From UHGV virus genome UHGV-0373904: 64,000 nt of DNA. One strand, 5' to 3'. Positions 2,727-56,621 of this stretch are shown here, piece after piece (the first letter of the stretch is position 1; every line of letters starts with the position of its first letter). The translations under genes and the position numbers were made by a program. The DNA is from a virus. Below the pieces are notes generated by a model. That model had not been told where the DNA came from and made no database searches. It saw nothing but the letters and a program-made list of their open reading frames with translations.

Positions 2727-3254
2727 ATGAATAAGTTCACAGCAATCAACACTATTCGCTCAAAAGACGTAATGAAAAAGCCTGTCAAGGATACTTTCGA
2801 ATTTACCCTGAAAGATAAAACTTTTGCAGTTATCACGAAAGGGGAAGATAAGAAATATTACATACATCGCCCAAATCAGCAAATGATAACAGCTAACAGC
2901 TTTATGAAGGCCGTAGCGGTTATCCTGCCGGATTATATGGTTATCGTCGCAGAAATTCACGAAATGGCTATCAAGGCGACTAAAAACGAGCTAAACCAAT
3001 ACAAAATGGCTTATGAACGCTCTATAAAGTCTCATAACCTTTTTATTGCAATTTTCTACACTGGCGTGTCTGCTACTGGTACGGGCAATCAACAACACCC
3101 AATCTATGAAGTTGAAAAACTGTTTACAAGTGAATACAAAACAGATATCTTTAAAGTAACGTTAGGCAAGGCATTAACAGACTTAATCAAGCTTTACGAA
3201 AAATCTTTAAAAAATTTAGAAAATGCACTTGACGAAACGTTATCAAATCTTTAA
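2727..3254 (+). CDS. Hypothetical early protein (175 aa)
   Basis: ORF with RBS ctggagaaatcaag-ATG. Confidence 0.55.
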   Translation: MNKFTAINTIRSKDVMKKPVKDTFEFTLKDKTFAVITKGEDKKYYIHRPNQQMITANSFMKAVAVILPDYMVIVAEIHEMAIKATKNELNQYKMAYERSIKSHNLFIAIFYTGVSATGTGNQQHPIYEVEKLFTSEYKTDIFKVTLGKALTDLIKLYEKSLKNLENALDETLSNL

Positions 3255-3320
3255 AGTATCTATCAAGGGGAAGAAATCACTTCCCCACTAAATAAAGTCC
3301 TTAAACTAGGGGTTATCAAG
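3255..3320 (+). promoter_or_regulatory. Intercistronic hairpin (ggggaagaaatcacttcccc) plus conserved leader
   Basis: Leader CACTAAATAAAGTCCTTAAACTAGGGG. Confidence 0.55.
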
Positions 3321-3584
3321 ATGGAAAACGTAGAATTAACCACACTATTGCAGATTGCAACTGACAAAGAAGATGTAGCACTGTTTCACCGTATCGAAAG
3401 CGATTTATTCAATGGTGAAATCATCAAAGAATCTTACGAAGTTGTCGGATTCAAAGATGGTAAAACATTTGGATTCTTTGACCTCGAAAAAGGCAACGCT
3501 GTTACAAAATATGATGTTTTATCTTGTGAGATTCTTACAAAATACAACGAAAAAAGGCTTGCAACATACGCCAATATGCAGTAA
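3321..3584 (+). CDS. Hypothetical early protein (87 aa)
   Basis: ORF after conserved leader. Confidence 0.5.
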   Translation: MENVELTTLLQIATDKEDVALFHRIESDLFNGEIIKESYEVVGFKDGKTFGFFDLEKGNAVTKYDVLSCEILTKYNEKRLATYANMQ

Positions 3585-15999: not shown

Positions 16000-16076
16000 C
16001 TCTGTTTAGCTCAGCTTGGTAGAGCGTTCCGTTTGGGGCGGTAAGGCCGGAGGTTCAAGTCCTCCAACAGAGACCA
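16000..16076 (+). tRNA. tRNA-Pro (anticodon TGG)
   Basis: Manual fold: acceptor ctctgtt/aacagag, T-arm ggagg-ttcaagt-cctcc, anticodon loop ttTGGgg, encoded CCA. Confidence 0.75.
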
Positions 16077-16083
16077 AATTAAT

Positions 16084-16161
16084 GTTCCAGTAGACAAAAT
16101 GGTAAAGTCACCACTCTTTCAAAGTGGATATCTGAGGGTTCAAATCCCTTCTGGAACGCCA
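16084..16161 (+). tRNA. tRNA-Glu (anticodon TTC)
   Basis: Acceptor gttccag/ctggaac, anticodon stem ccact/agtgg, loop ctTTCaa, T-loop ttcaaat, CCA. Confidence 0.8.
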
Positions 16162-16162
16162 G

Positions 16163-16252
16163 TTTTGACAGAAGACCAATTACAGCAAACTTAATCTTAT
16201 TCATCTGAAGGTAAATCGGACAAAGAAGAGATTTGGTCTGGTCATTAAGAAT
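16163..16252 (+). repeat. tRNA-array spacer element copy 1 (CAGAAGACCAAT...ATTTGGTCTGG hairpin-bounded)
   Basis: 5' cagaagaccaattacagcaa and 3' tttggtctgg can pair (agaccaa/ttggtct). Confidence 0.55.
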
Positions 16253-16329
16253 TGCGGGTATAGAGAAAGGGCGTCTCACATGTCTCATTAGCATGGTATC
16301 GGCAGGTTCGACTCCTGCACCCGCCTCCA
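16253..16329 (+). tRNA. tRNA with anticodon CAT (Met or Ile2/lysidine type)
   Basis: Acceptor tgcgggt/acccgcc (1:72 mismatch), anticodon stem catgt/gcatg, loop ctCATta, T-arm gcagg-ttcgact-cctgc, CCA. Confidence 0.65.
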
Positions 16330-16330
16330 A

Positions 16331-16403
16331 TTTTGCAGAAGACCGTATTCAGCAACAAAATACTTTTGCGGATAAAAGAAAAAACACGGTCTGGCAATGT
16401 ATT
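16331..16403 (+). repeat. tRNA-array spacer element copy 2 (CAGAAGACCGT...ACGGTCTGG)
   Basis: Same flanking motif with compensatory change (agaccg/cggtct). Confidence 0.55.
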
Positions 16404-16405
16404 AA

Positions 16406-16482
16406 GGTTAGGAAGCACATAAGGTATGTGCGGTCGCCTGTTAAGCGAATGGCACAGGGTTCGAATCCCTGACTAACCGCCA
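16406..16482 (+). tRNA. tRNA-Asn (anticodon GTT)
   Basis: Acceptor ggttagg/actaacc, D-stem gcac/gtgc, anticodon loop ctGTTaa, T-arm caggg-ttcgaat-ccctg, CCA. Confidence 0.8.
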
Positions 16483-16490
16483 AATTAAAT

Positions 16491-16578
16491 GTGTCGTTAT
16501 CCCGTAGATGGTAGCGGTGGGGACTGTAAATCCCTTGTCATTGAGACTCGGTAGGTTCGACTCCTACACGGCACACCA
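16491..16578 (+). tRNA. tRNA-Tyr (anticodon GTA), long variable arm
   Basis: Acceptor gtgtcgt/acggcac, anticodon stem gggga/tccct, loop ctGTAaa, 15-nt variable arm, T-arm gtagg-ttcgact-cctac, CCA. Confidence 0.8.
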
Positions 16579-16583
16579 ATAAA

Positions 16584-16660
16584 GGCTATGTAGTTTAACT
16601 GGAGAAAATACTCCCCTGTCACGGGAGATGATGTGAGTTCAAGTCTCATCGTAGCCGCCA
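16584..16660 (+). tRNA. tRNA-Asp (anticodon GTC)
   Basis: Acceptor ggctatg/cgtagcc, anticodon stem ctccc/gggag, loop ctGTCac, CCA. Confidence 0.8.
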
Positions 16661-16720
16661 ATTTTGAGAGGGCTATTTAGCCCCTCCCTTAAAGGGTTCT
16701 TACGAGTATCCTTTAAAGGA

Positions 16721-16800
16721 GCAGAAGACCAAATACAGCAAGAACGTATGAAAATTTCAAGCCAATTTAATTTTGAAAAATTTAAAACTTGGTCTGGCTC
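16721..16800 (+). repeat. tRNA-array spacer element copy 3 (CAGAAGACCAAATACAGCAA...TTGGTCTGG)
   Basis: Same motif; preceded by terminator-like hairpin agggc-tattta-gccct and a TTAAAGG..CCTTTAA palindrome (16661-16716). Confidence 0.55.
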
Positions 16801-16940
16801 AACAAATTTACAGAAGACCGTTTACAGCAAAACTTAAACAATCTATTTCTCGGTAAAGAAAAGGCGAAGGTTCGATTCCTTCACTCGGCAGATGTCGAGT
16901 TGGTGTAATGGTAGCACTTAAGATGATAAACAACGGTCTG
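16801..16940 (+). repeat. tRNA-array spacer element copy 4 (CAGAAGACCGTTTACAGCAA...AACGGTCTGG) enclosing tRNA-like fragments
   Basis: 8-bp closing stem agaccgtt/aacggtct; the interior holds a T-arm plus 3' acceptor-like segment next to a 5' acceptor plus D-arm-like segment. Confidence 0.55.
16863..16920 (+). pseudogene. tRNA-like fragments (T-arm gaagg-ttcgatt-ccttc plus actcggc, then gtcgagt plus D-arm-like tggtgtaatggtagcac)
   Basis: A canonical T-arm with 3' acceptor-like strand is followed 4 nt later by a complementary 5' acceptor-like strand and a D-arm; no complete cloverleaf could be folded in normal order. Confidence 0.4.
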
Positions 16941-17090
16941 GTAATTATCTTTGTAGATAAGTTATTAAGCTTACCTGTGAGTATGCGACCACAAAGGGTG
17001 AAAGGGTAAATTCTAGATTTAAACCCAAAAAGGCACATCGCTACAGACCTTAAGCAAGTCTGGGTAGCTTATCTGCAAAGATAATTTAAT

Positions 17091-17166
17091 GGAAGTGTAG
17101 CAGAATGGTGATGCGGCAGACTTTTAATCTGACAGGCGATGGGTTCGAATCCCTCCACTTCTACCA
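17091..17166 (+). tRNA. tRNA-Lys (anticodon TTT)
   Basis: Acceptor ggaagtg/cacttct, anticodon stem gcaga/tctga (one mismatch), loop ctTTTaa, T-loop ttcgaat, CCA. Confidence 0.7.
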
Positions 17167-17244
17167 AATTCACCCTTAACTGAGAAACACCTGCGCGGCT
17201 GGAAACACCCACTCAACAGTTTCTCTAACTAGGGTACTTATTCT

Positions 17245-17321
17245 GGTTCAGTCGCAGATAAGGTAATGCAGGGGTTTCATAAGCCCTATGAATGTGGGTT
17301 CGATTCCCATCTGAACCTCCA
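17245..17321 (+). tRNA. tRNA-Met (anticodon CAT); GGG/CCC in the anticodon stem is initiator-like
   Basis: Acceptor ggttcag/ctgaacc, anticodon stem ggggt/gccct, loop ttCATaa, T-arm gtggg-ttcgatt-cccat, CCA. Confidence 0.75.
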
Positions 17322-17322
17322 A

Positions 17323-17398
17323 GCTGGTATAGTTAAGAAGGTTATAACACTCCCCTGATAAGGGAACATCGGTGGTTCGATTCCACCTACCAGCACCA
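17323..17398 (+). tRNA. tRNA-Ile (anticodon GAT)
   Basis: Acceptor gctggta/taccagc, anticodon loop ctGATaa, T-arm ggtgg-ttcgatt-ccacc, CCA. Confidence 0.75.
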
Positions 17399-17413
17399 AT
17401 TTCAATAAAGTTG

Positions 17414-17442
17414 TTGACATTGAGATGTGACTACTTTATAGT
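17414..17442 (+). promoter_or_regulatory. Sigma70-type promoter inside the tRNA array (TTGACA-N17-TATAGT)
   Basis: aaagttgTTGACAttgagatgtgactacttTATAGT. Confidence 0.65.
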
Positions 17443-17445
17443 AAC

Positions 17446-17733
17446 TAAAACACTTCATAATATGTATAATTCAAACACCAATACATGAGCGTTAGACGTA
17501 ACACAATGTGGGGAAATTTGTTGTACATATTCTGAATAGTTTTCGTTGCGTAGCGTCTATTTTGAAAATTTAAAATAAATGCAAACGACAATGTTTTTCT
17601 GGCAGTAGCTTGATAGGCTAAACACCAGTGAGGTCTTCCAATCCCTCATCAAAGAATTTGGCGTACTCGCCCACGGTATGATTAATAAGGTGGGCATCTT
17701 TAAGGGCTTTCTAAGAGAGTCTTTAAAGATAAT
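17446..17733 (+). other. ORF-poor 290-nt segment downstream of a promoter inside the tRNA array; candidate non-coding RNA locus
   Basis: No tRNA fold found, no ORF of 60 aa or more; lies between promoter 17414-17442 and tRNA-Arg. Confidence 0.35.
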
Positions 17734-17810
17734 GCACCCTTAGTTCAATTGGATAGAGCAACGGTCTTCTAAATCGTTAGTTACAGGTTCGAATCCTGTA
17801 GGGTGTACCA
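17734..17810 (+). tRNA. tRNA-Arg (anticodon TCT)
   Basis: Acceptor gcaccct/agggtgt, D-arm gttcaattggatagagc, anticodon stem acggt/atcgt, loop ctTCTaa, T-arm acagg-ttcgaat-cctgt, CCA. Confidence 0.8.
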
Positions 17811-17952
17811 AATAGTTAGCAGATTACTTAGACGGCCTTAGCGGGTCTTCCTGTAGGGAGGTGGTCTGTATCTCATGTTTTCCAGAACATGTAAATAATC
17901 TGAGAAGAGGCTTGACAGTGTTGAGATAACAGGGTAAGCTTCGAATTATAAT

Positions 17953-18035
17953 ATGGGACGATGTTAAGACTCTAAGGCATGAGCAACGGCCTCCAAAACC
18001 GTTTCAAAGGGGTTCAACTCCTCCGTCCCATGCCA
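17953..18035 (+). tRNA. Non-canonical tRNA-like gene (possible anticodon CCA, Trp) with expanded D region and enlarged anticodon loop
   Basis: Perfect 7-bp acceptor atgggac/gtcccat plus GCCA end and T-arm agggg-ttcaact-cctcc; anticodon stem aacgg/ccgtt encloses a 9-nt loop cctccaaaa; D region is about 6 nt too long to fold canonically. Confidence 0.4.
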
Positions 18036-18048
18036 AAGTCTTATTAGG

Positions 18049-18136
18049 GGTAGGTAGCGGCTAATGGTAGCCAAACTGTCTTGAAAACAGTTGCCACTGT
18101 AGAGATACGGTGAGGGTTCGACTCCTTTACTTACCG
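18049..18136 (+). tRNA. tRNA-Ser (anticodon TGA), class II with long variable arm
   Basis: Acceptor ggtaggt/acttacc, anticodon stem actgt/acagt, loop ctTGAaa, ~20-nt variable arm, T-loop ttcgact; CCA not encoded. Confidence 0.75.
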
Positions 18137-18289
18137 CCTAATAAGATTTACTCCGTCCATGCTTGTTCGCATTGTCGGTTTATCCCTCGTGTATTGTCGT
18201 ACACTGTCAAAGCACCTAGTAGGTGTCACGGAGAAGAGATAATATCAAGCTCTCCAAAGGTTCTAGTCACCGGATTAAACAAGACTATG

Positions 18290-18312
18290 CAAAGACCTAT
18301 TTAGGTCTTTTT
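18290..18312 (+). terminator. Rho-independent terminator inside the tRNA array
   Basis: agaccta-ttt-aggtct perfect hairpin followed by ttttt. Confidence 0.6.
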
Positions 18313-18391
18313 AGAGGGCTTCTAAGGTTATTACAGCTTGTTGTGGAACCTTGTTGCTTAGGTTCTTAGAAGTTCTCTAAAAAGATTTAAT

Positions 18392-18468
18392 GCACCTATA
18401 GCCCAACTGGTAGAGGCAGCAGACTTAGAATCTGCTCAGTGTGAGTTCGAATCTCTCTAGGTGTACCA
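18392..18468 (+). tRNA. tRNA with anticodon TAG (Leu by code) but short variable region
   Basis: Acceptor gcaccta/taggtgt (close paralog of tRNA-Arg TCT), anticodon stem gcaga/tctgc, loop ctTAGaa, 5-nt variable region, T-loop ttcgaat, CCA. Confidence 0.6.
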
Positions 18469-18475
18469 AATTAAT

Positions 18476-18551
18476 GCAGGTGTAGCAAAATGGTTATGCG
18501 GCTGACTCTTAATCAGTAAGACGATGGGTTCAATTCCCTCCACCTGTACCA
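18476..18551 (+). tRNA. tRNA-Lys (anticodon CTT)
   Basis: Acceptor gcaggtg/cacctgt, anticodon stem gctga/tcagt, loop ctCTTaa, T-loop ttcaatt, CCA; paralog of tRNA-Lys TTT. Confidence 0.65.
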
Positions 18552-18557
18552 AACATT

Positions 18558-18633
18558 GGGGTCATAGTTTATATGGTTAAAATTCGAGTTTTGCAAACTT
18601 GGGAACTGAGTTCAATTCTCAGTGACTCCACCA
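18558..18633 (+). tRNA. tRNA-Ala (anticodon TGC)
   Basis: Acceptor ggggtca/tgactcc (G3-U70), anticodon stem cgagt/acttg, loop ttTGCaa, T-arm ctgag-ttcaatt-ctcag, CCA. Confidence 0.75.
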
Positions 18634-18639
18634 ATTAGT

Positions 18640-18714
18640 GCATCCATAGTTTAAACGGGAAAATTACAGTCTTCCAAACTGAGGTTGAGGGTTCGATTCC
18701 CTCTGGATGCTCCA
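18640..18714 (+). tRNA. tRNA-Gly (anticodon TCC)
   Basis: Acceptor gcatcca/tggatgc, anticodon loop ctTCCaa, T-arm gaggg-ttcgatt-ccctc, CCA. Confidence 0.7.
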
Positions 18715-18721
18715 AATTAAT

Positions 18722-18797
18722 GCTCCTATCGTATAATTGGCTATTACGGTTGCCTTGTAAGCAACTTATCAGGGTTCGAATCCTTGTGGGAGCACCA
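18722..18797 (+). tRNA. tRNA-Thr (anticodon TGT)
   Basis: Acceptor gctccta/tgggagc, anticodon stem gttgc/gcaac, loop ctTGTaa, T-arm caggg-ttcgaat-ccttg, CCA. Confidence 0.8.
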
Positions 18798-18887
18798 ATT
18801 CAGAGGTCAAGTGAAAGACCGCTTTGAGTCAACTGAAGACCGTAACAAATTCCACGGAGTTGAGTTAGCGGCACAACTCCAGACCTC
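18793..18887 (+). repeat. Structured spacer (agaggtc ... gacctct outer stem, inner hairpin ggagttg..caactcc, GAAGACCG motif)
   Basis: Nested inverted repeats; contains ctgaagaccgtaacaaa related to the CAGAAGACC spacer family. Confidence 0.45.
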
Positions 18888-18893
18888 TTTCAT

Positions 18894-18968
18894 ACTCGCT
18901 TAGTTTATATGGTAAAACATCACCCTTACAAGATGAAGAAAAAGGTTCAAGTCCTTTAGTGAGTACCA
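18894..18968 (+). tRNA. tRNA-Val (anticodon TAC)
   Basis: Acceptor actcgct/agtgagt, D-stem gttt/aaac, anticodon loop ctTACaa, T-arm aaagg-ttcaagt-ccttt, CCA. Confidence 0.7.
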
Positions 18969-18969
18969 T

Positions 18970-19047
18970 GTTCCAGTATCCCAATTGGCAGAGGATGCAA
19001 GCTCAAACCTTGTACTAGTGACGGTTCGAATCCGTCTTGGAACACCA
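18970..19047 (+). tRNA. tRNA with anticodon CAA (Leu by code) but short variable region
   Basis: Acceptor gttccag/ttggaac, anticodon stem gcaag/cttgt, loop ctCAAac, 6-nt variable region, T-arm gacgg-ttcgaat-ccgtc, CCA. Confidence 0.65.
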
Positions 19048-19052
19048 ATTTT

Positions 19053-19128
19053 GCAGGATTAGTTCAAATGGATAGAGCAACAGTCTACGAAGCTGTTAGT
19101 AGGGGTTCGAATCCCTTATCCTGCGCCA
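19053..19128 (+). tRNA. tRNA-Arg (anticodon ACG)
   Basis: Acceptor gcaggat/atcctgc, anticodon stem acagt/gctgt, loop ctACGaa, T-loop ttcgaat, CCA. Confidence 0.75.
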
Positions 19129-19146
19129 GATAAGCAAGAGGAATTT

Positions 19147-19389
19147 ATGCAAACATTAATCGTCGTTGAACATGAAAATCCCAATAGTATTGAGTTTGTA
19201 AGGGTTCCCACTATAGATACTCACATTTTCTTGAAAGTCGGATGGGAATGCGACCCGATAAAAGTAGGAAAATTTCTTGGTCATTACTTTGGTGGAAGAC
19301 AATTTAAAAGTATCAATTTTGAGACAGTATTACCAGAAAACTCAGAAACAGACAATAATACTTACCTCCTTACGAGGATTAGACAATGA
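19147..19389 (+). CDS. Hypothetical protein (80 aa) embedded in the tRNA array
   Basis: ORF with upstream aagaggaa RBS-like sequence. Confidence 0.4.
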   Translation: MQTLIVVEHENPNSIEFVRVPTIDTHIFLKVGWECDPIKVGKFLGHYFGGRQFKSINFETVLPENSETDNNTYLLTRIRQ

Positions 19390-19943
19390 GATACTTAAAA
19401 TATGTTTCATGGATTTTCTTAGCTTTGTTAGAACCATTTGCAGCAACCCTAGCAGTCATCTTAGCACCTTTCGTAGTTCCATTCTACAGTGAGAAGAAAG
19501 GGCATCTACCTTTTGGATTCAGATGGACGGAGACCTATGACAACCCTATTGATGGTGACAAAGGCCACGTTGAGAGATGGGCTAAGATTAGAAAGATTGG
19601 TAAGCTTGGTGTCTACATGCAGAGAGTTGGATGGCTCTGGAGAAACAAAGCTTATAACTTCTCTTACCATGTATTAGGAAGAGATGTAAAAGACGTTACT
19701 AAGTGGAAAGGTAATATCAACGTAAGTTCTAACCCTGAAGATAATCAAACAGGTTATCTCCTAATGTGGAACAGTAATGCTTGGGGATTATTCGCTTTTA
19801 TCCCATCAATTAAAATCTTTGGTAAACAGTTTTACTGGAGAATTTATATTGGATGGAAACTTAAAAGTGTTGTCCCAGAAGAAAGAGCATTCTCAAGGGA
19901 AAGAGTTATGTTGGCATTCTTTATTCATCCACTGAGAAAGTAA
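19386..19943 (+). CDS. Hypothetical membrane protein (185 aa) embedded in the tRNA array
   Basis: N-terminal hydrophobic segment WIFLALLEPFAATLAVILAPFVVPF; 4-nt overlap with the upstream ORF. Confidence 0.45.
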   Translation: MRYLKYVSWIFLALLEPFAATLAVILAPFVVPFYSEKKGHLPFGFRWTETYDNPIDGDKGHVERWAKIRKIGKLGVYMQRVGWLWRNKAYNFSYHVLGRDVKDVTKWKGNINVSSNPEDNQTGYLLMWNSNAWGLFAFIPSIKIFGKQFYWRIYIGWKLKSVVPEERAFSRERVMLAFFIHPLRK

Positions 19944-19951
19944 AGATTTAA

Positions 19952-20027
19952 AGGGGATTAGTTTACAAGGTTAAAACCTCGGTCTTTGAAATCGAAGAAG
20001 TTGGTTCAATTCCAACATCCCCCGCCA
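19952..20027 (+). tRNA. tRNA-Gln (anticodon TTG)
   Basis: Acceptor aggggat/atccccc (1:72 mismatch), D-stem gttt/aaac, anticodon stem tcggt/atcga, loop ctTTGaa, T-arm gttgg-ttcaatt-ccaac, CCA. Confidence 0.7.
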
Positions 20028-20029
20028 AT

Positions 20030-20108
20030 GCTCCATTACTCCAATTGGCAGAGAGGCCAGACTTAAAATCTGTGTTATGTATCGGTTCGAATCCGATATG
20101 GAGTACCA
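20030..20108 (+). tRNA. tRNA with anticodon TAA (Leu by code) but short variable region
   Basis: Acceptor gctccat/atggagt, anticodon loop ctTAAaa, 7-nt variable region, T-arm atcgg-ttcgaat-ccgat, CCA; paralog of the CAA tRNA at 18970. Confidence 0.65.
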
Positions 20109-20113
20109 AATTT

Positions 20114-20189
20114 AGCGGTATAGCATAACTGGCAATGCAACAGTCTCTGAAGCTGTCCTATTAAGGTTCAAATCCTTATGCCGCTGCCA
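20114..20189 (+). tRNA. tRNA-Gln (anticodon CTG)
   Basis: Acceptor agcggta/tgccgct, D-stem gcat/atgc, anticodon stem acagt/gctgt, loop ctCTGaa, T-arm taagg-ttcaaat-cctta, CCA. Confidence 0.7.
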
Positions 20190-20220
20190 CTTCTAAGGAT
20201 TCTTACGAGAGTCCTTAAAT

Positions 20221-20296
20221 GTGGCCTTATCATAAAAGGTAATGACCCATGCTGTGAACATGGTCTATACGGGTTCAAATCCCGTAGGTCACCCCA
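20221..20296 (+). tRNA. tRNA-His (anticodon GTG)
   Basis: Acceptor gtggcct/aggtcac, D-stem tcat/atga, anticodon stem ccatg/catgg, loop ctGTGaa, T-arm acggg-ttcaaat-cccgt, CCA; no encoded G-1. Confidence 0.75.
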
Positions 20297-20301
20297 ATTT
20301 A

Positions 20302-20378
20302 TAGTCCAAGTAGCTTATATGGTTAAAGCGCGTGTCTGAAAAACATGAGAAGAGGGTTCAAATCCCACTGGACTACCA
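20302..20378 (+). tRNA. tRNA-Phe (anticodon GAA)
   Basis: Acceptor tagtcca/tggacta, anticodon stem cgtgt/acatg, loop ctGAAaa, T-loop ttcaaat. Confidence 0.7.
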
Positions 20379-20394
20379 ATTTCAAAGGTGCTTA

Positions 20395-21129
20395 ATGAAA
20401 GAGATGACAGAACAAGGTAAGGAGATTTTTAATCTCTTAAAAACTGGTAAAGGGTTTTCTAACCCCCTTATTACTGGTGCAGCAGTTCTCGGTGGAACCG
20501 TAGCTGCCTCTACATCACTTGTAAGCTCTATTAGCTCTGTATCAGACCCTACAGTAAAGGATAAGCTTGTTGCTGCTGGACTTACAACAGTTCTGCTTAA
20601 CAGCTTTACCACGAGTCTGACAAGCACTACATCAACTACCAAAACACTAACAGATTACGGTCAAAAGTCCATTGATGAGTTTTCATCACGTATGCAGGTA
20701 GCAAAAGGTTACTCTAATGTTATGGGTGCAGCAGGTGAACAAGTTGGCTGTACACCGTTTAGTGGTATTATGGGCGTTGCTACAGAATATGGTCAAAAAG
20801 CTATTGACACAATTAACAGTGCACTAGATGTCGTTAATGATGTATTAAGTGACTTACAAGATGCTATTGACAAAGGTCTTGATACTATTTCTGATTTAGC
20901 TAACCAAGCTGTTAGTAAGATTAATGAAGGTATTTCGAAGATTACAGCTTATGCAGATGAAGTTGTGCAGATGATTGAAGAAGAAGCTGCTCTTATTGCA
21001 GAGTACCTTAAAACGAATATCAATGGGTTCTTAGCAGGTATCTTACCAGACTGGTTTGATGATGCTTGTAAAACTGGTGTGATTGACACTATTGCAACAC
21101 CAGAAATGAAGAACGCATTACAGAAATAA
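20395..21129 (+). CDS. Hypothetical Ser/Thr-rich protein
   Basis: ORF track start 20332 lies inside tRNA-Phe; the ATG at 20395 is preceded by aaagg. Ser/Thr-rich low-complexity N-terminal region. Confidence 0.5.
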   Translation: MKEMTEQGKEIFNLLKTGKGFSNPLITGAAVLGGTVAASTSLVSSISSVSDPTVKDKLVAAGLTTVLLNSFTTSLTSTTSTTKTLTDYGQKSIDEFSSRMQVAKGYSNVMGAAGEQVGCTPFSGIMGVATEYGQKAIDTINSALDVVNDVLSDLQDAIDKGLDTISDLANQAVSKINEGISKITAYADEVVQMIEEEAALIAEYLKTNINGFLAGILPDWFDDACKTGVIDTIATPEMKNALQK

Positions 21130-21130
21130 T

Positions 21131-21223
21131 GGAAGATTAACCCTAAAAGGTAAGGGAGCAGTTTGCTAAACTGCCAGTAGCTGAGAAATCGGTGTACCAG
21201 TTCAAGTCTGGTATCTTCCTCCA
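21131..21223 (+). tRNA. tRNA-Ser (anticodon GCT), class II
   Basis: Acceptor ggaagat/atcttcc, anticodon stem gcagt/actgc, loop ttGCTaa, 21-nt variable arm, T-arm accag-ttcaagt-ctggt, CCA. Confidence 0.8.
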
Positions 21224-21227
21224 ATTT

Positions 21228-21303
21228 GAATCCGTGACAGAAATGGCTATGTGCCTGTCTGCAAAACAGGTTTATAAGGGTTCGAGTCCCTTCGGATTCT
21301 CCA
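21228..21303 (+). tRNA. tRNA-Cys (anticodon GCA)
   Basis: Acceptor gaatccg/cggattc, anticodon stem cctgt/acagg, loop ctGCAaa, T-arm aaggg-ttcgagt-ccctt, CCA. Confidence 0.8.
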
Positions 21304-52892: not shown

Positions 52893-53126
52893 TCATAGCA
52901 ACTCCAGAATATCAATACGTTCACCTTTGAGTACTCCAGTACGGTCTTTTGCAATCTTACCTTCAACAATAAGAATGTGTGCAGACCTTAAAGTGTCGCT
53001 GTTAAAGGTTTTTACGAACCTACTAGGCATGACTACAATGCACATCTCCTGAATTAACTCTGGAGTGTAGCAGTTATCATGAAGTTGCTGAATAACGTCT
53101 GCAAGTGTCATTTTTGATGTCTCCAA
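52893..53126 (-). CDS. Hypothetical protein (77 aa)
   Basis: ORF. Confidence 0.4.
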   Translation of the reverse strand: METSKMTLADVIQQLHDNCYTPELIQEMCIVVMPSRFVKTFNSDTLRSAHILIVEGKIAKDRTGVLKGERIDILELL

Positions 53127-53317
53127 TATTCAATATCTACAAGTTCTTGTGCAATGCTTTTCAGATTACCTTTCAAGAAAACCTTCTCAGAACCTGAAAG
53201 AGATGAATTGTCAATTAACCTGTTCATTCTCTCAAACAACTTCTGCTTACGATTTTTGATAGTTTCCTTTGAAGCACCTTTCATCATTGCTGCATGGGTT
53301 CTTCCACGGTGGCTCAT
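53108..53317 (-). CDS. Hypothetical basic protein (69 aa)
   Basis: ORF; Lys/Arg-rich. Confidence 0.4.
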   Translation of the reverse strand: MSHRGRTHAAMMKGASKETIKNRKQKLFERMNRLIDNSSLSGSEKVFLKGNLKSIAQELVDIEYWRHQK

Positions 53318-53368
53318 AAGCCCTCCTATACAAGATGTAGTATAAGGTACTCCTCCATGAGCACCTTG

Positions 53369-53920
53369 TCAACTTAGTTTTGCAAACTCTCCGTGGAGTT
53401 TCACAGCAGCTTCACAGTAAGCTTTATGGGCTTCTTCTGGTGTGTCAAACATACCAAGATGATAGTTTTTACCTTGTAAACGTATCATTGCTCGAAACCT
53501 TTTACTTATCTTCTGTACACCTTTTGGCAACCCAGATGGGGACTCTCTTGACCGATTGCAAGAGTTTTGTGAAGCTGTACAAACCCTTAAATTCAAGTAC
53601 CTATTGTCCCAACCGTCCCCATTCTTATGGTCAACCTGTAAGGTTTTATCAGGTAGATATCCATCCATATACAAGATAACTAAACGATTTGCTTGGTAAC
53701 CCCTTCCATCAATCAGCAACTGAACTGACTTGTGTCCATCAGTATTTGTTCTGTAGTTTCCAGCCCTCTTACCTCCAAATCTAGAGTTAAAGTTTGCATT
53801 ACCTTCTCTAAACTTCCAAGTAAAGACCCCTGTTTCGGGGTCGTAGTCCAATAGCTCCTTAAGACGAATTTCTGTAATCATTTCAACACCATCAATGTAC
53901 TTCCAACCAGCTCTTACCAA
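53369..53920 (-). CDS. HNH endonuclease with AP2 DNA-binding domain (homing endonuclease-like)
   Basis: HNH core LQVDHKNGDGWDNRYLNLRVCTASQN; C-terminal GVQKISKRFRAMIRLQGKNYHLGMFDTPEEAHKAYCEAAVKLHGEFA is AP2-like. Start may be the internal Met (about 53881), removing the overlap with the polymerase. Confidence 0.8.
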   Translation of the reverse strand: MVRAGWKYIDGVEMITEIRLKELLDYDPETGVFTWKFREGNANFNSRFGGKRAGNYRTNTDGHKSVQLLIDGRGYQANRLVILYMDGYLPDKTLQVDHKNGDGWDNRYLNLRVCTASQNSCNRSRESPSGLPKGVQKISKRFRAMIRLQGKNYHLGMFDTPEEAHKAYCEAAVKLHGEFAKLS

Positions 53921-56621
53921 CCTTACCTGTGCCAGTTACAAGCGTCTCACTCTTCAAACCTAAATTCTTAGATGCCTGACCATACATCCAGTCAGTTATG
54001 GCTTTAACTTCTTGAGTCATACTTTCTGGGCATTCCCAACTGTTTTCATCGTGGTATGCCAGCAAAAGCCTAGCACCAATTGCTGGTTTTCGTCCATTTA
54101 ATTTTGTCAATCCTTCTTCACATGCTCTTCTACAAGCAAGGTTAATTGCCTCATTTTGAATCTGAGCCTCTGAACCCATGAGCAAATAATTCAATAACTT
54201 ATGTGGAGATTTACACCACAACCAAGCTCCAGCAACCTTTACAAAACCCCCTTTAGAGATTGCAGCAGTCTTACCAAACACCTCTTCAAGTGCCTTTTTA
54301 GTTGCTTTGTAGTCAGCTTCCAAGTCATCTAGTAGCTTCTTAATTTTAGGCAAACGAATAAAGTAAGTTTGTTTAGTCAGTGCACCTTCCTGAGTAGTTG
54401 CAGCTTTAATCGTCTTAGCAAACTTCTCATCCCCTGCACCGAACAGCAGTGCATAGATACCATTCTTAGCTTTCTTACGACCTTTACTAATCTCATGAAG
54501 AAGATTCTCATCCTGAGTAGCTCGACAAGTCAAGATATCCTGCTCATCATTCAAGCTAAAGTAAATACTGTTCAGTGTGTGTGCATCAGTCCCTGAATAG
54601 ACAACGTAAAGGTCATTCTCAGAGTCATAGCGAAGGTACTTATCAATCTCTGGATTGAGGTACTCATCAAAATGTTTGCAGTAATAGCGTCCATCTTCTT
54701 GACGAATAAACTCAATCTCTTCTTTACCTTGCGTCACCGCTTTGGTGAAGTCTTTGTCACCCATAAAGTTACAAAGAAGAACTAGCTGGGCTGAGTTCAT
54801 GTCTACAGAGACGACGTTAGTACCTTCTTCACAAATCCACACTGCCCTCATTGGTTCCCCATAGACAGCAGCACCAGACGGTACGTTTACAATACCATAT
54901 TGTGTCATACGTCCAGTTGAAGTACCAAACACCATTGCACCAGCACTAAGGCGACCATCAGGACGAATCTGGTTCAACCAACCTTTTTCATCATCCTTTG
55001 AGTTCTCAATAGTTCTACGTCGGTGCATCAAAGTATAGTATTTAGCAATCTTCTGTCCAAGCTCGCCTTCAATCGTATCATAAGATGATTCAGTAAGTTT
55101 TGGTGAAGTACGGATTAAGCAAGGCTCAAGCAAATCTGTGTACTTCTTCACAGACCAGTTATGCTCAATGTACTGGACACCTTCATGTTCAACATAACTC
55201 AAGCCACACCGTTCAACCATCTCCTGCCACTTAGGATGCTTTGTAATCATCTTTTTGTTGTCTTTGAAACGACAAACTTTGACAGGGCGACCATCTGAGT
55301 CTTTCTTGTAGTTCCAGTCATCTGGAATCCAACCAACTGATTTCAAGTAGTCTTTAACAACTGCTACCTGAGTCATACGAGAAACTTCGAACTCAATTGG
55401 TGTATATGGTGCATCAATCAATCCTGTGTAGCGACTTGACTCAAGTTCAAAGTGGTTAACAACATGGCTGTTATAGTACTTCACAGTTTTAACAGTTTTT
55501 ACTGGCTTCCAGTCTTTGCATTTCTTACCAATCTTTGCATTCAACTCGTTGCAAATTGCACGGGCATCCTTCATTGCTACAAAGCCTTCCTTGTACTCTT
55601 CACCAGTTACAGAGTTGGTTGGTGTATAGCAATTTCTCTTTTCAATGTTAAAAATCTTTGTAGTTGGCTTACCAAATGGTTTTATTTCATAAGTCTGCAT
55701 CTCGCCATTACGTACCTGCTGACGATACTTTGTCTTAGGGTACTTGGTAATTCTTTTCAGTCCATCTGCATGACCAAATGCTTCAACATACTCATTCCAA
55801 GCTTTTGCAAACTCTTCTCCAGTCACTTTACCTTTGGTCTTAATAGTTGGAGGTAGGTGTGGTTCAACCTCTGAAGCAAGTTCGTTAGTTAACTTGTCAA
55901 GTTCCTTTACATGAAACTCCATAAGCTCTTTATCAGCTTTCCAACCATTGATAGCCTGTTGACTCATCCAGAAAGATGTCTCTTTAGCTCGCATGTAAGT
56001 TTCATAAGTGTCTATGCCACACTTCTTAAGCTTGAGATACTCGTTATCAAGTGCCCGTTTGGTTTTGGCGTTAATACGGATATCTTCTACAACACGAGTG
56101 AAGATTTCTGCATTCCACACACCCCAGTGTTCAATCTCTGGTTTACGAACACCAACACGAGCACCCCATGCAGCCAAACCATGAGCACCTTTATAACCCT
56201 TTGGAGTTGGTCTATCCATCCACTGAACACGAGACTGGATAAGAGAATCCTGAAAGAAATTACTCCACGGCTTACATTTTGGATTATCAAAGTTCCATAA
56301 ATCCGGTGCAATGTGATTGAAAACCCACCAGTCATAACCGAGACCATTATGGATACAAAGTCGTTTTGCCTTCAACGCAAACTCAATACCTTCACGTAAT
56401 CCACCCTTGATGTACTTAGTGTACTTGTGACCGAGAATAGGTTCATCAGTAAAGACCCATACTGGTGGTTCTTCGTCGTCAGATTTGTAGTCTGCGAAAG
56501 CCATTACGTGAACTTTAGTGAACTCAAGGAGTAAACCATCAGTTTCTGTATCACCAACTAAATGTAAGTTTTTAAAATCTACGTTTTCCATTTTTACTCC
56601 CTCTAAAATCATTAACCTCAT
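53892..56621 (-). CDS. DNA polymerase, family A with 3'-5' exonuclease domain
   Basis: Exo I motif DTETDGL; SVDMNSAQLVLL (motif A-like), KNGIYALLFGAG (motif B-like), LLAYHDEN (motif C). Likely true start is ATG at 56591 (MENVDF..) preceded by AGGGAG. Confidence 0.9.
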   Translation of the reverse strand: MRLMILEGVKMENVDFKNLHLVGDTETDGLLLEFTKVHVMAFADYKSDDEEPPVWVFTDEPILGHKYTKYIKGGLREGIEFALKAKRLCIHNGLGYDWWVFNHIAPDLWNFDNPKCKPWSNFFQDSLIQSRVQWMDRPTPKGYKGAHGLAAWGARVGVRKPEIEHWGVWNAEIFTRVVEDIRINAKTKRALDNEYLKLKKCGIDTYETYMRAKETSFWMSQQAINGWKADKELMEFHVKELDKLTNELASEVEPHLPPTIKTKGKVTGEEFAKAWNEYVEAFGHADGLKRITKYPKTKYRQQVRNGEMQTYEIKPFGKPTTKIFNIEKRNCYTPTNSVTGEEYKEGFVAMKDARAICNELNAKIGKKCKDWKPVKTVKTVKYYNSHVVNHFELESSRYTGLIDAPYTPIEFEVSRMTQVAVVKDYLKSVGWIPDDWNYKKDSDGRPVKVCRFKDNKKMITKHPKWQEMVERCGLSYVEHEGVQYIEHNWSVKKYTDLLEPCLIRTSPKLTESSYDTIEGELGQKIAKYYTLMHRRRTIENSKDDEKGWLNQIRPDGRLSAGAMVFGTSTGRMTQYGIVNVPSGAAVYGEPMRAVWICEEGTNVVSVDMNSAQLVLLCNFMGDKDFTKAVTQGKEEIEFIRQEDGRYYCKHFDEYLNPEIDKYLRYDSENDLYVVYSGTDAHTLNSIYFSLNDEQDILTCRATQDENLLHEISKGRKKAKNGIYALLFGAGDEKFAKTIKAATTQEGALTKQTYFIRLPKIKKLLDDLEADYKATKKALEEVFGKTAAISKGGFVKVAGAWLWCKSPHKLLNYLLMGSEAQIQNEAINLACRRACEEGLTKLNGRKPAIGARLLLAYHDENSWECPESMTQEVKAITDWMYGQASKNLGLKSETLVTGTGKVGKSWLEVH

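Follow-up and report, generated by a model that had tools for sequence, protein, structure and literature searches.

I-HmuI of Bacillus phage SPO1 is a monomeric nicking enzyme that is encoded by an intron, is tied to a phage family A DNA polymerase gene and carries C-terminal modules of the NUMOD/helix-turn-helix type. In the classification of His-Me finger enzymes it shares group 2 with the HNH-AP2 endonucleases (PMC5714182), which form an established family of homing endonucleases (Magnani et al., 2004, as cited in PMC10448857 and PMC5714182). HNH-AP2 genes adjoin DNA polymerase genes in 29% of cases and mark boundaries of genetic exchange (PMC10448857); among them are the 'IPA-HNH' genes of ICP1-like phages, with an N-terminal HNH and a C-terminal AP2 domain (Barth et al., 2023). 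Free-standing endonuclease genes of other types are found in comparable positions. The T4 gene mobE, which lies between nrdA and nrdB, has no promoter of its own and is kept in check by a terminator within it; its product nicks the adjacent gene in phages without mobE and brings about co-conversion (Wilson and Edgell, 2009; PMC2790892). In cyanophage S-PM2, the gene for F-CphI lies just downstream of psbA, a gene with an ORF-less group I intron, and the enzyme, which has an Endo VII motif, cuts the intron insertion site (PMC6083498).

Here we compare with these systems a gene found next to the DNA polymerase gene in the window, i.e., the whole stretch of 64,000 nucleotides of UHGV virus genome UHGV-0373904 that was analysed. 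We read it as a free-standing HNH-AP2 homing endonuclease gene lodged in a 5-nt spacer between the polymerase stop codon and a TTGACA box, and assign this reading a probability of about 0.8. As with mobE, a free-standing HNH gene directly follows an essential gene of nucleotide metabolism or replication and there is no room for a promoter between the two. MobE differs in belonging to a PF01844-type Mob family with another C-terminal domain, the window protein combining HNH_3 with AP2; moreover, nicking and trans-homing by MobE were shown experimentally, whereas the window gene is known from sequence. Among solved structures, I-HmuI (PDB 1u3e) comes closest to the N-terminal and catalytic part, and both are associated with a phage family A polymerase gene; unlike I-HmuI, the window gene is free-standing, lies past the polymerase stop codon and ends in an AP2 domain. 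It shares domain order and the marking of exchange boundaries with the ICP1-like genes, which are too divergent for Pfam HNH_3 (PMC10448857), whereas the window gene matches this family clearly.

The window is part of a Felixounavirus (Felix O1-like) genome. Over about 4.2 kb around the locus, identity to Escherichia phages Alf5, adrianh and LMP33 is 96-98%, and the polymerase region is matched by 262 phage records. The locus contains the following features:

53892..56621, (-) strand: family A DNA polymerase gene, contiguous and uninterrupted, 909 aa, with Pfam and PHROG matches
53882..53920, (-) strand: in-frame extension upstream of the endonuclease gene to a TTG, made up of the 10-nt spacer TGGTGTTGAA (53882-53891, with a Shine-Dalgarno-like GGTG) and the last 29 nt of the polymerase gene
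53369..53881, (-) strand: probable HNH-AP2 homing endonuclease coding sequence (allele A) of 170 aa, with its ATG at 53881 and its TGA at 53369-53371
53561..53695, (-) strand: HNH_3 motif (DH..N..NLR..QN) of an I-HmuI-like His-Me finger, Pfam PF13392
53390..53512, (-) strand: AP2/ERF-type DNA-binding domain, Pfam PF00847
53367..53372, (-) strand: TTGACA box of the downstream flank, which gives the endonuclease stop codon (AGT TGA CA) and is the 3' edge of the insertion in alignments of empty and filled sites
53108..53317, (-) strand: conserved downstream gene, the 3' flank of the insertion site (PHROG 5180, unknown function)

Elsewhere in the window, 24 tRNA genes are clustered at positions 16000-21300 on the (+) strand (Rfam RF00005, 33-65 bits), which is typical of Felix O1-like phages.

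A preliminary description of this DNA had placed the gene directly 3' of the polymerase gene and overlapping it. The adjacency holds; the overlap is an artefact of ORF calling. The ORF at 53369..53920 (-) has 183 aa if read from the TTG at 53920, and it runs 29 nt into the polymerase gene because the longest-ORF rule reads from that upstream TTG. The ATG at 53881 lies 10 nt past the polymerase stop codon (CAT TGA TGGTGTTGAA ATG), with GGTG ahead of it. Alleles A and B (defined below) begin at this same ATG, which also gives an N-terminal length like that of paralogues, and the start of allele C overlaps the polymerase stop codon (TGATG). The extension at 53882..53920 is thus probably outside the protein. 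The gene is free-standing, given that it begins past the stop codon of a contiguous polymerase ORF in a window with no intron match.

The preliminary description had also proposed, from the letters alone, an HNH nuclease with an AP2 domain, and profile searches bear this out. The protein matches PF13392 (HNH_3) with an E-value of 6e-12 and 45.4 bits, above the curated cut-off of 24.8, and PHROG 99 ('HNH endonuclease') with an E-value of 3e-60. A profile built from seven alleles matches I-HmuI (E = 5e-9, positions 43-139), and the motif aligns to DHKDGNKDNN..NLR..IN of that enzyme. Residues D84, H85, N93, N97 and N109 are unchanged in all seven alleles (catalytic motif VDHKNGDGWDNRYLNLR...QNSCN); by analogy with I-HmuI, they are taken to supply the catalytic Asp-His, the structural Asn and the metal-binding Asn. 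For the AP2 domain, the single sequence stays under the Pfam cut-off of 33.3 (PF00847, E = 3.5e-5, 24.4 bits), and the assignment comes from the seven-allele profile, which matches the solved AP2/ERF domains of WRI1 (E = 8e-11), ERF096 (2e-6), TEM1 (2e-5) and AtERF1 (5e-5). No paralogue of the gene was found within the window at E ≤ 1. Proteins 99.4% identical in LMP33, JK55 and ekra already carry the GenBank annotation 'HNH homing endonuclease' (tblastn), and the Mushroom record of the gene adds the note 'AP2/ERF domain'. The reading of the gene is well supported, and the finding is an ordinary one: near-identical copies are annotated and elements of this kind are known. A literature search for this enzyme in Felixounavirus or for a close relative returned no cleavage assay, target site or biochemistry.

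The insertion site was defined by comparison with phage Ro111lw, in which the endonuclease gene is absent: the polymerase stop (...CACTAAT) is followed by TAGTA and then by the TTGACA box (TTGACAAGG). The window gene fills exactly this gap, the 5-nt spacer, and its stop codon lies inside the box. The flanks on either side are conserved, identity in the PHROG 5180 gene being 95-98% whether or not a phage has the endonuclease gene. The flank at 53322-53372 (-), TTGACAAGGTGCTCATGGAGGAGTACCTTATACT, contains -35-like and -10-like boxes 22 nt apart. It is conserved at filled and empty sites alike, upstream of the PHROG 5180 gene, and may be a phage-specific promoter.

The preliminary description had suggested comparing this junction among related phages. 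A 74-nt probe across the junction finds it uninterrupted and empty in 104 records, so the gene is far from universal at its site; wV8, like Ro111lw, lacks it. Allele A, over at least 80% of its length, is present in 28 records (megablast), and a further 117 match solely its last 106 nt (nt 408-513; megablast). In every locus that was read, such a partial match turned out to be a full-length HNH-AP2 gene of another allele family; we name allele B (dune, S19cd, JLBYU28), allele C (Andreotti, EC106) and allele D (FelixO1 itself). Felix O1 has been reported to contain six HNH genes (PMC3185647). The other alleles share 44-58% protein identity with allele A, with an identical C-terminus, and the four families at this one site are 40-58% identical to one another. 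All of these counts refer to redundant GenBank records rather than to independent lineages. At exactly this position, between conserved flanks, relatives thus have either no insert or one of at least four allele families, among them that of the window gene.

Two stretches at the borders of the gene show how these states may be exchanged:

53369..53474, (-) strand: the 3' terminal 106 nt of the gene (C-terminus TPEEAHKAYCEAAxKLHGEFAKLS), with 87-97% nucleotide identity among otherwise saturated allele families
53895..54150, (-) strand: the last 256 nt of the polymerase gene, a distinct haplotype block beside the endonuclease gene, with bimodal identity and a block edge visible in alignments

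The first is a probable downstream recombination arm for allele replacement, judging from its conservation. For the second, identity to the window across records is at least 95% in 33, between 90 and 95% in none, and between 60 and 90% in 260; we interpret this block as a putative co-conversion tract imported with the endonuclease gene. Like the flanking haplotypes around mobE, such blocks resemble co-conversion tracts.

Gene and flank do not always travel together. The copies in LNA1 and HMD-P8 share 99.0% and 97.7% identity with the window gene, but the adjoining 256-nt polymerase tail just 78.9%, with a breakpoint within the last ~30 nt of the polymerase gene. In Andreotti the tail is 97.7% identical to that of the window, yet the gene is allele C. 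Copies 98-99% identical beside polymerase tails 79% identical indicate that the gene has moved by recombination, and the alignments thus demonstrate, as far as sequence comparison can, exchange between phage backgrounds, the breakpoints lying within the last ~30-256 nt of the polymerase gene and the last ~70-106 nt of the endonuclease gene. The claim of horizontal exchange of a selfish element made in the preliminary description is substantiated by this discordance in LNA1, HMD-P8 and Andreotti. Loss was also seen: in Shigella phage SflM004 (vB_SflM_004) a window-type tail is followed by just 14 nt from the start of the insert, among them the ATG, so that GGTGTTGAAATGAT remains after the polymerase stop, and then at once by the downstream flank. 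This junction is best read as a deletion scar, and the gene can evidently be lost by deletion. The possibility that the tail haplotype determines immunity to allele A was considered and rejected: LNA1 and HMD-P8 have allele A on a 79% tail, and the window haplotype occurs with allele C in Andreotti and with no gene in SflM004.

SflM004 contains a further peculiarity. Pieces of 32-45 nt, 97-100% identical to allele A and collinear with it, are spread over ~3 kb of Moogle-like sequence (L014, 3030-6100), part of which is a 1.9-kb stretch without an annotated gene. Shredding of a gene, patches of gene conversion or a chimeric assembly could each account for them.

A second mobile element occupies the polymerase gene of relatives. 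In Mushroom the polymerase is annotated as two genes, and the 311-nt gap between them is identified by Rfam as a group I intron (RF00028, 62.3 bits; cut-off 50). Its 5' exon has U as the last nucleotide, the intron ends in G, and in P1 AUGCGU pairs with GCGCAU. Matches to RF00028 of 61-65 bits occur in six relatives (L002 at 3191-3501 (-), L006, L008, L009, L012 and L015). Most GenBank records annotate the intron-split polymerase as two separate 'DNA polymerase' genes; the Meda record has a joined CDS. The announcement of Mushroom noted the split polymerase with a 383-bp gap and not the intron (PMC4392139), and the SPJ41 paper lists 'two introns' among ncRNAs (PMC9951933); our literature search for a described Felixounavirus polymerase intron found little beyond these two mentions. 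The corresponding positions are as follows:

54448..54449, (-) strand: unoccupied intron insertion site in the window, within polymerase motif B (KNGIYA|LLFGAG), placed by alignment with Mushroom, 567 nt upstream of the endonuclease ATG
1947-2429 of L007 and 2281-2741 of L005, (-) strand: intron ORFs of the Endonuclease_7 family (PF02945) in relatives

The window itself has no Rfam match to a group I intron, and the alignment shows the site to be unoccupied. Three forms of the intron were found in relatives. A form of ~800 nt encodes a 160-aa Endonuclease_7 protein (PF02945, E = 1.5e-19) with a zinc-ribbon-like N-terminus; in VpaE1 and PC79-13 this form was missed at the Rfam gathering threshold and was identified by BLAST to the ORF-less intron. 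In VpaE1 a probable frameshift divides the ORF into two that overlap. The two ORF-less forms are 311 nt (11 records) and 268 nt (45 records), the latter being the former minus a 43-nt loop. Mushroom and garuso combine the 311-nt form with allele A. The ORF-containing insert is bounded by a 15-nt overlap (GACTCCTAAAGCAAA), and the sequence suggests loss of the ORF by recombination between short repeats.

The state of the intron is associated with the state of the downstream site. All 22 scored genomes with an ORF-less intron have an HNH-AP2 allele downstream (A, B or C), and none of the 56 ORF-less-intron records is among the ~83 empty-site records listed. Among 23 genomes with an ORF-containing intron, the downstream site is empty in 20 and holds an HNH-AP2 gene in three. 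Fisher's exact test gives p = 6e-10, uncorrected for relatedness or duplicate records, and p = 0.003 when restricted to loci read in sequence, likewise uncorrected for relatedness. Among the combinations of allele and intron state, only the pairing of an ORF-less intron with an empty site is missing. A strict tie between allele A and the ORF-less intron was rejected, the combinations otherwise assorting fairly freely.

This association is the pattern predicted if a defunct intron is spread in trans by a neighbouring free-standing endonuclease. An ORF-less intron within 2 kb of the gene in the same genome, as expected of such a pair, is found in relatives and not in the window. As in the mobE system, a group I intron without a working endonuclease lies at co-conversion distance, here in relatives of the intronless window phage. 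We tentatively raise the idea, by analogy and with some doubt, that the HNH-AP2 gene might drive the spread of ORF-less polymerase introns through trans-homing, with co-conversion over 567 nt. If so, the window would represent a driver-only state, with the endonuclease present and the intron absent. The arrangement in Mushroom, garuso, LNA1 and other relatives recalls that of F-CphI, with the endonuclease gene just downstream of a gene bearing an ORF-less intron; unlike in S-PM2, however, the Endo VII-type protein is here the intron's own ORF in other relatives. Collaborative homing of the F-CphI type, in which the HNH-AP2 enzyme would cut the intron insertion site, was rejected as unlikely because the site in the window equals that in Ro111lw bar one nucleotide in ~40 nt, so that the phage would cut itself.

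Salmonella phage GEC_vB_BS (MW006475) shows an unusual arrangement in the same region (L074, 1560-1990), where the intron runs straight into the last 25 codons of an HNH-AP2 gene, with neither polymerase exon 2 nor the greater part of the endonuclease gene present. An older record of the same name (MG969407) differs, and MW006475 is either a defective genome or a mis-assembly.

Between allele A and diverged copies, dN/dS is 0.04-0.07 at dS 0.4-0.5. Such values show, as far as codon comparison allows, that the endonuclease protein is under strong purifying selection and is being maintained; together with the intact catalytic residues they would indicate an active protein. The gene has a GC content of 40.5%, against 39-41% in its flanks. 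A foreign base composition was accordingly rejected, and the equality with the genome argues that the family has long been established in these phages and did not enter the group recently from elsewhere.

Purifying selection is equally compatible with active homing and with a domesticated role. An HNH-AP2 protein that has lost homing and now serves under ordinary selection, as a DNA-binding regulator or a competitor-excluding nuclease, would be expected to show this dN/dS and the base composition of its host genome, and it would have precedents in the AP2 transcription factors found elsewhere and in phages that have co-opted the DNA-binding domains of endonucleases (PMC10448857). We nevertheless regard domestication as unlikely. 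Close relatives lack the gene in ~40% of cases and in another ~45% have alleles 44-58% identical in its place; with the deletion scar in SflM004 and the sharp breakpoints at the borders, this is how a dispensable mobile gene behaves. The catalytic residues have been preserved, and marker exclusion is itself a consequence of homing, not a competing function. Once fixed, homing endonuclease genes are expected to degenerate, and degenerate states do occur in relatives, namely the SflM004 scar and the copy reduced to its last 25 codons in GEC_vB_BS, which could be taken to mean that the window gene is itself an inactive relic, once mobile, fixed in its lineage and now decaying. This appears very improbable for a full-length copy in which every invariant motif residue is present and whose allele family shows dN/dS of 0.04-0.07, the more so as near-identical copies in different backgrounds imply recent transfer.

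Since relatives have a group I intron in the polymerase gene, many with an endonuclease ORF, it may also be asked whether the gene is, or is left over from, an intron- or intein-encoded endonuclease of the polymerase. To this we give practically no weight: the gene lies past the polymerase stop codon, the polymerase is uninterrupted and the window has no Rfam intron, and the intron ORF of relatives belongs to another family, Endonuclease_7, and sits 567 nt upstream. The preliminary description was right that the polymerase ORF is intact and that the gene is neither intron nor intein.

Taking the gene as a free-standing homing endonuclease gene, we propose the following course of events. The gene is probably promoterless, being only 10 nt from the polymerase stop, and would be co-transcribed with the polymerase gene. 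Its product, with an I-HmuI-like N-terminal region, a predicted His-Me finger (HNH_3) active site and a C-terminal AP2 domain, would in a mixed infection nick or cut the genome of a gene-less relative at or near the 3' end of the polymerase gene or the intergenic junction. The recipient would then be repaired with the carrier genome as template and so acquire the gene, along with more or less of the polymerase tail. Genomes already occupied would escape, either through disruption of the site by the insertion or through flank polymorphisms; in the simplest model, the target lies at or near the polymerase stop codon and junction and is destroyed by the insertion itself.

Expression of the gene may be restrained by an element within it:

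53825..53842, (-) strand: 18-nt palindrome GACCCCGAAACAGGGGTC (codons DPETGV), followed by TTTACTT, forming a terminator-like hairpin 40 nt into the ORF

The hairpin was flagged by a terminator scan and forms in both the minimum free energy and the centroid fold. Its stem, GACCCC/GGGGTC, is invariant in 59 of 59 instances (alleles A-D and paralogues at other loci, with ~41% protein identity), part of which were fetched by exact match to the 18-mer; loci fetched otherwise show the same stem. The 6-nt loop varies (GAAACA, GAAATA, GACAAA, GATACA). The stem uses the codons CCC and GGG, which in the polymerase gene encode 0 of 32 prolines and 4 of 64 glycines. The T-tract that follows is weak (TTTACTT) and is worse in alleles C and D; the scan gave seven sites in the region against 2.8±1.4 expected, so that this match is not decisive alone, and shuffled versions of the surrounding 136 nt fold just as well (z = 0.68). 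A terminator-like hairpin inside the coding region is also a feature of mobE, and by this analogy the GC-rich hairpin probably limits expression as the internal terminator of mobE does; we propose with moderate confidence that it is a conserved expression brake of HNH-AP2 genes.

Movement of the gene would account for the mosaic 3' end of a polymerase gene that is essential and otherwise ~95% conserved. Felixounavirus phages are much used in therapy and typing, and the locus marks a recombination hot spot relevant to their taxonomy and engineering. As a selfish element the gene is routine; what merits further work is the population anatomy of the locus and its intron association, i.e., four interchangeable alleles, an empty state, a scar and an intron of three forms that is non-randomly associated with them. 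With culturable E. coli and Salmonella phages, the locus offers a natural system for trans-homing and for competition between homing endonucleases.

Felixounavirus sequence also turned up under unrelated names: MG065664 and MG065668 ('Campylobacter phage A132/A126') and GU169904 ('Staphylococcus phage SA1') contain polymerase-intron or endonuclease sequence of this group at 91-100% identity, and are probably mixed or mislabelled assemblies.
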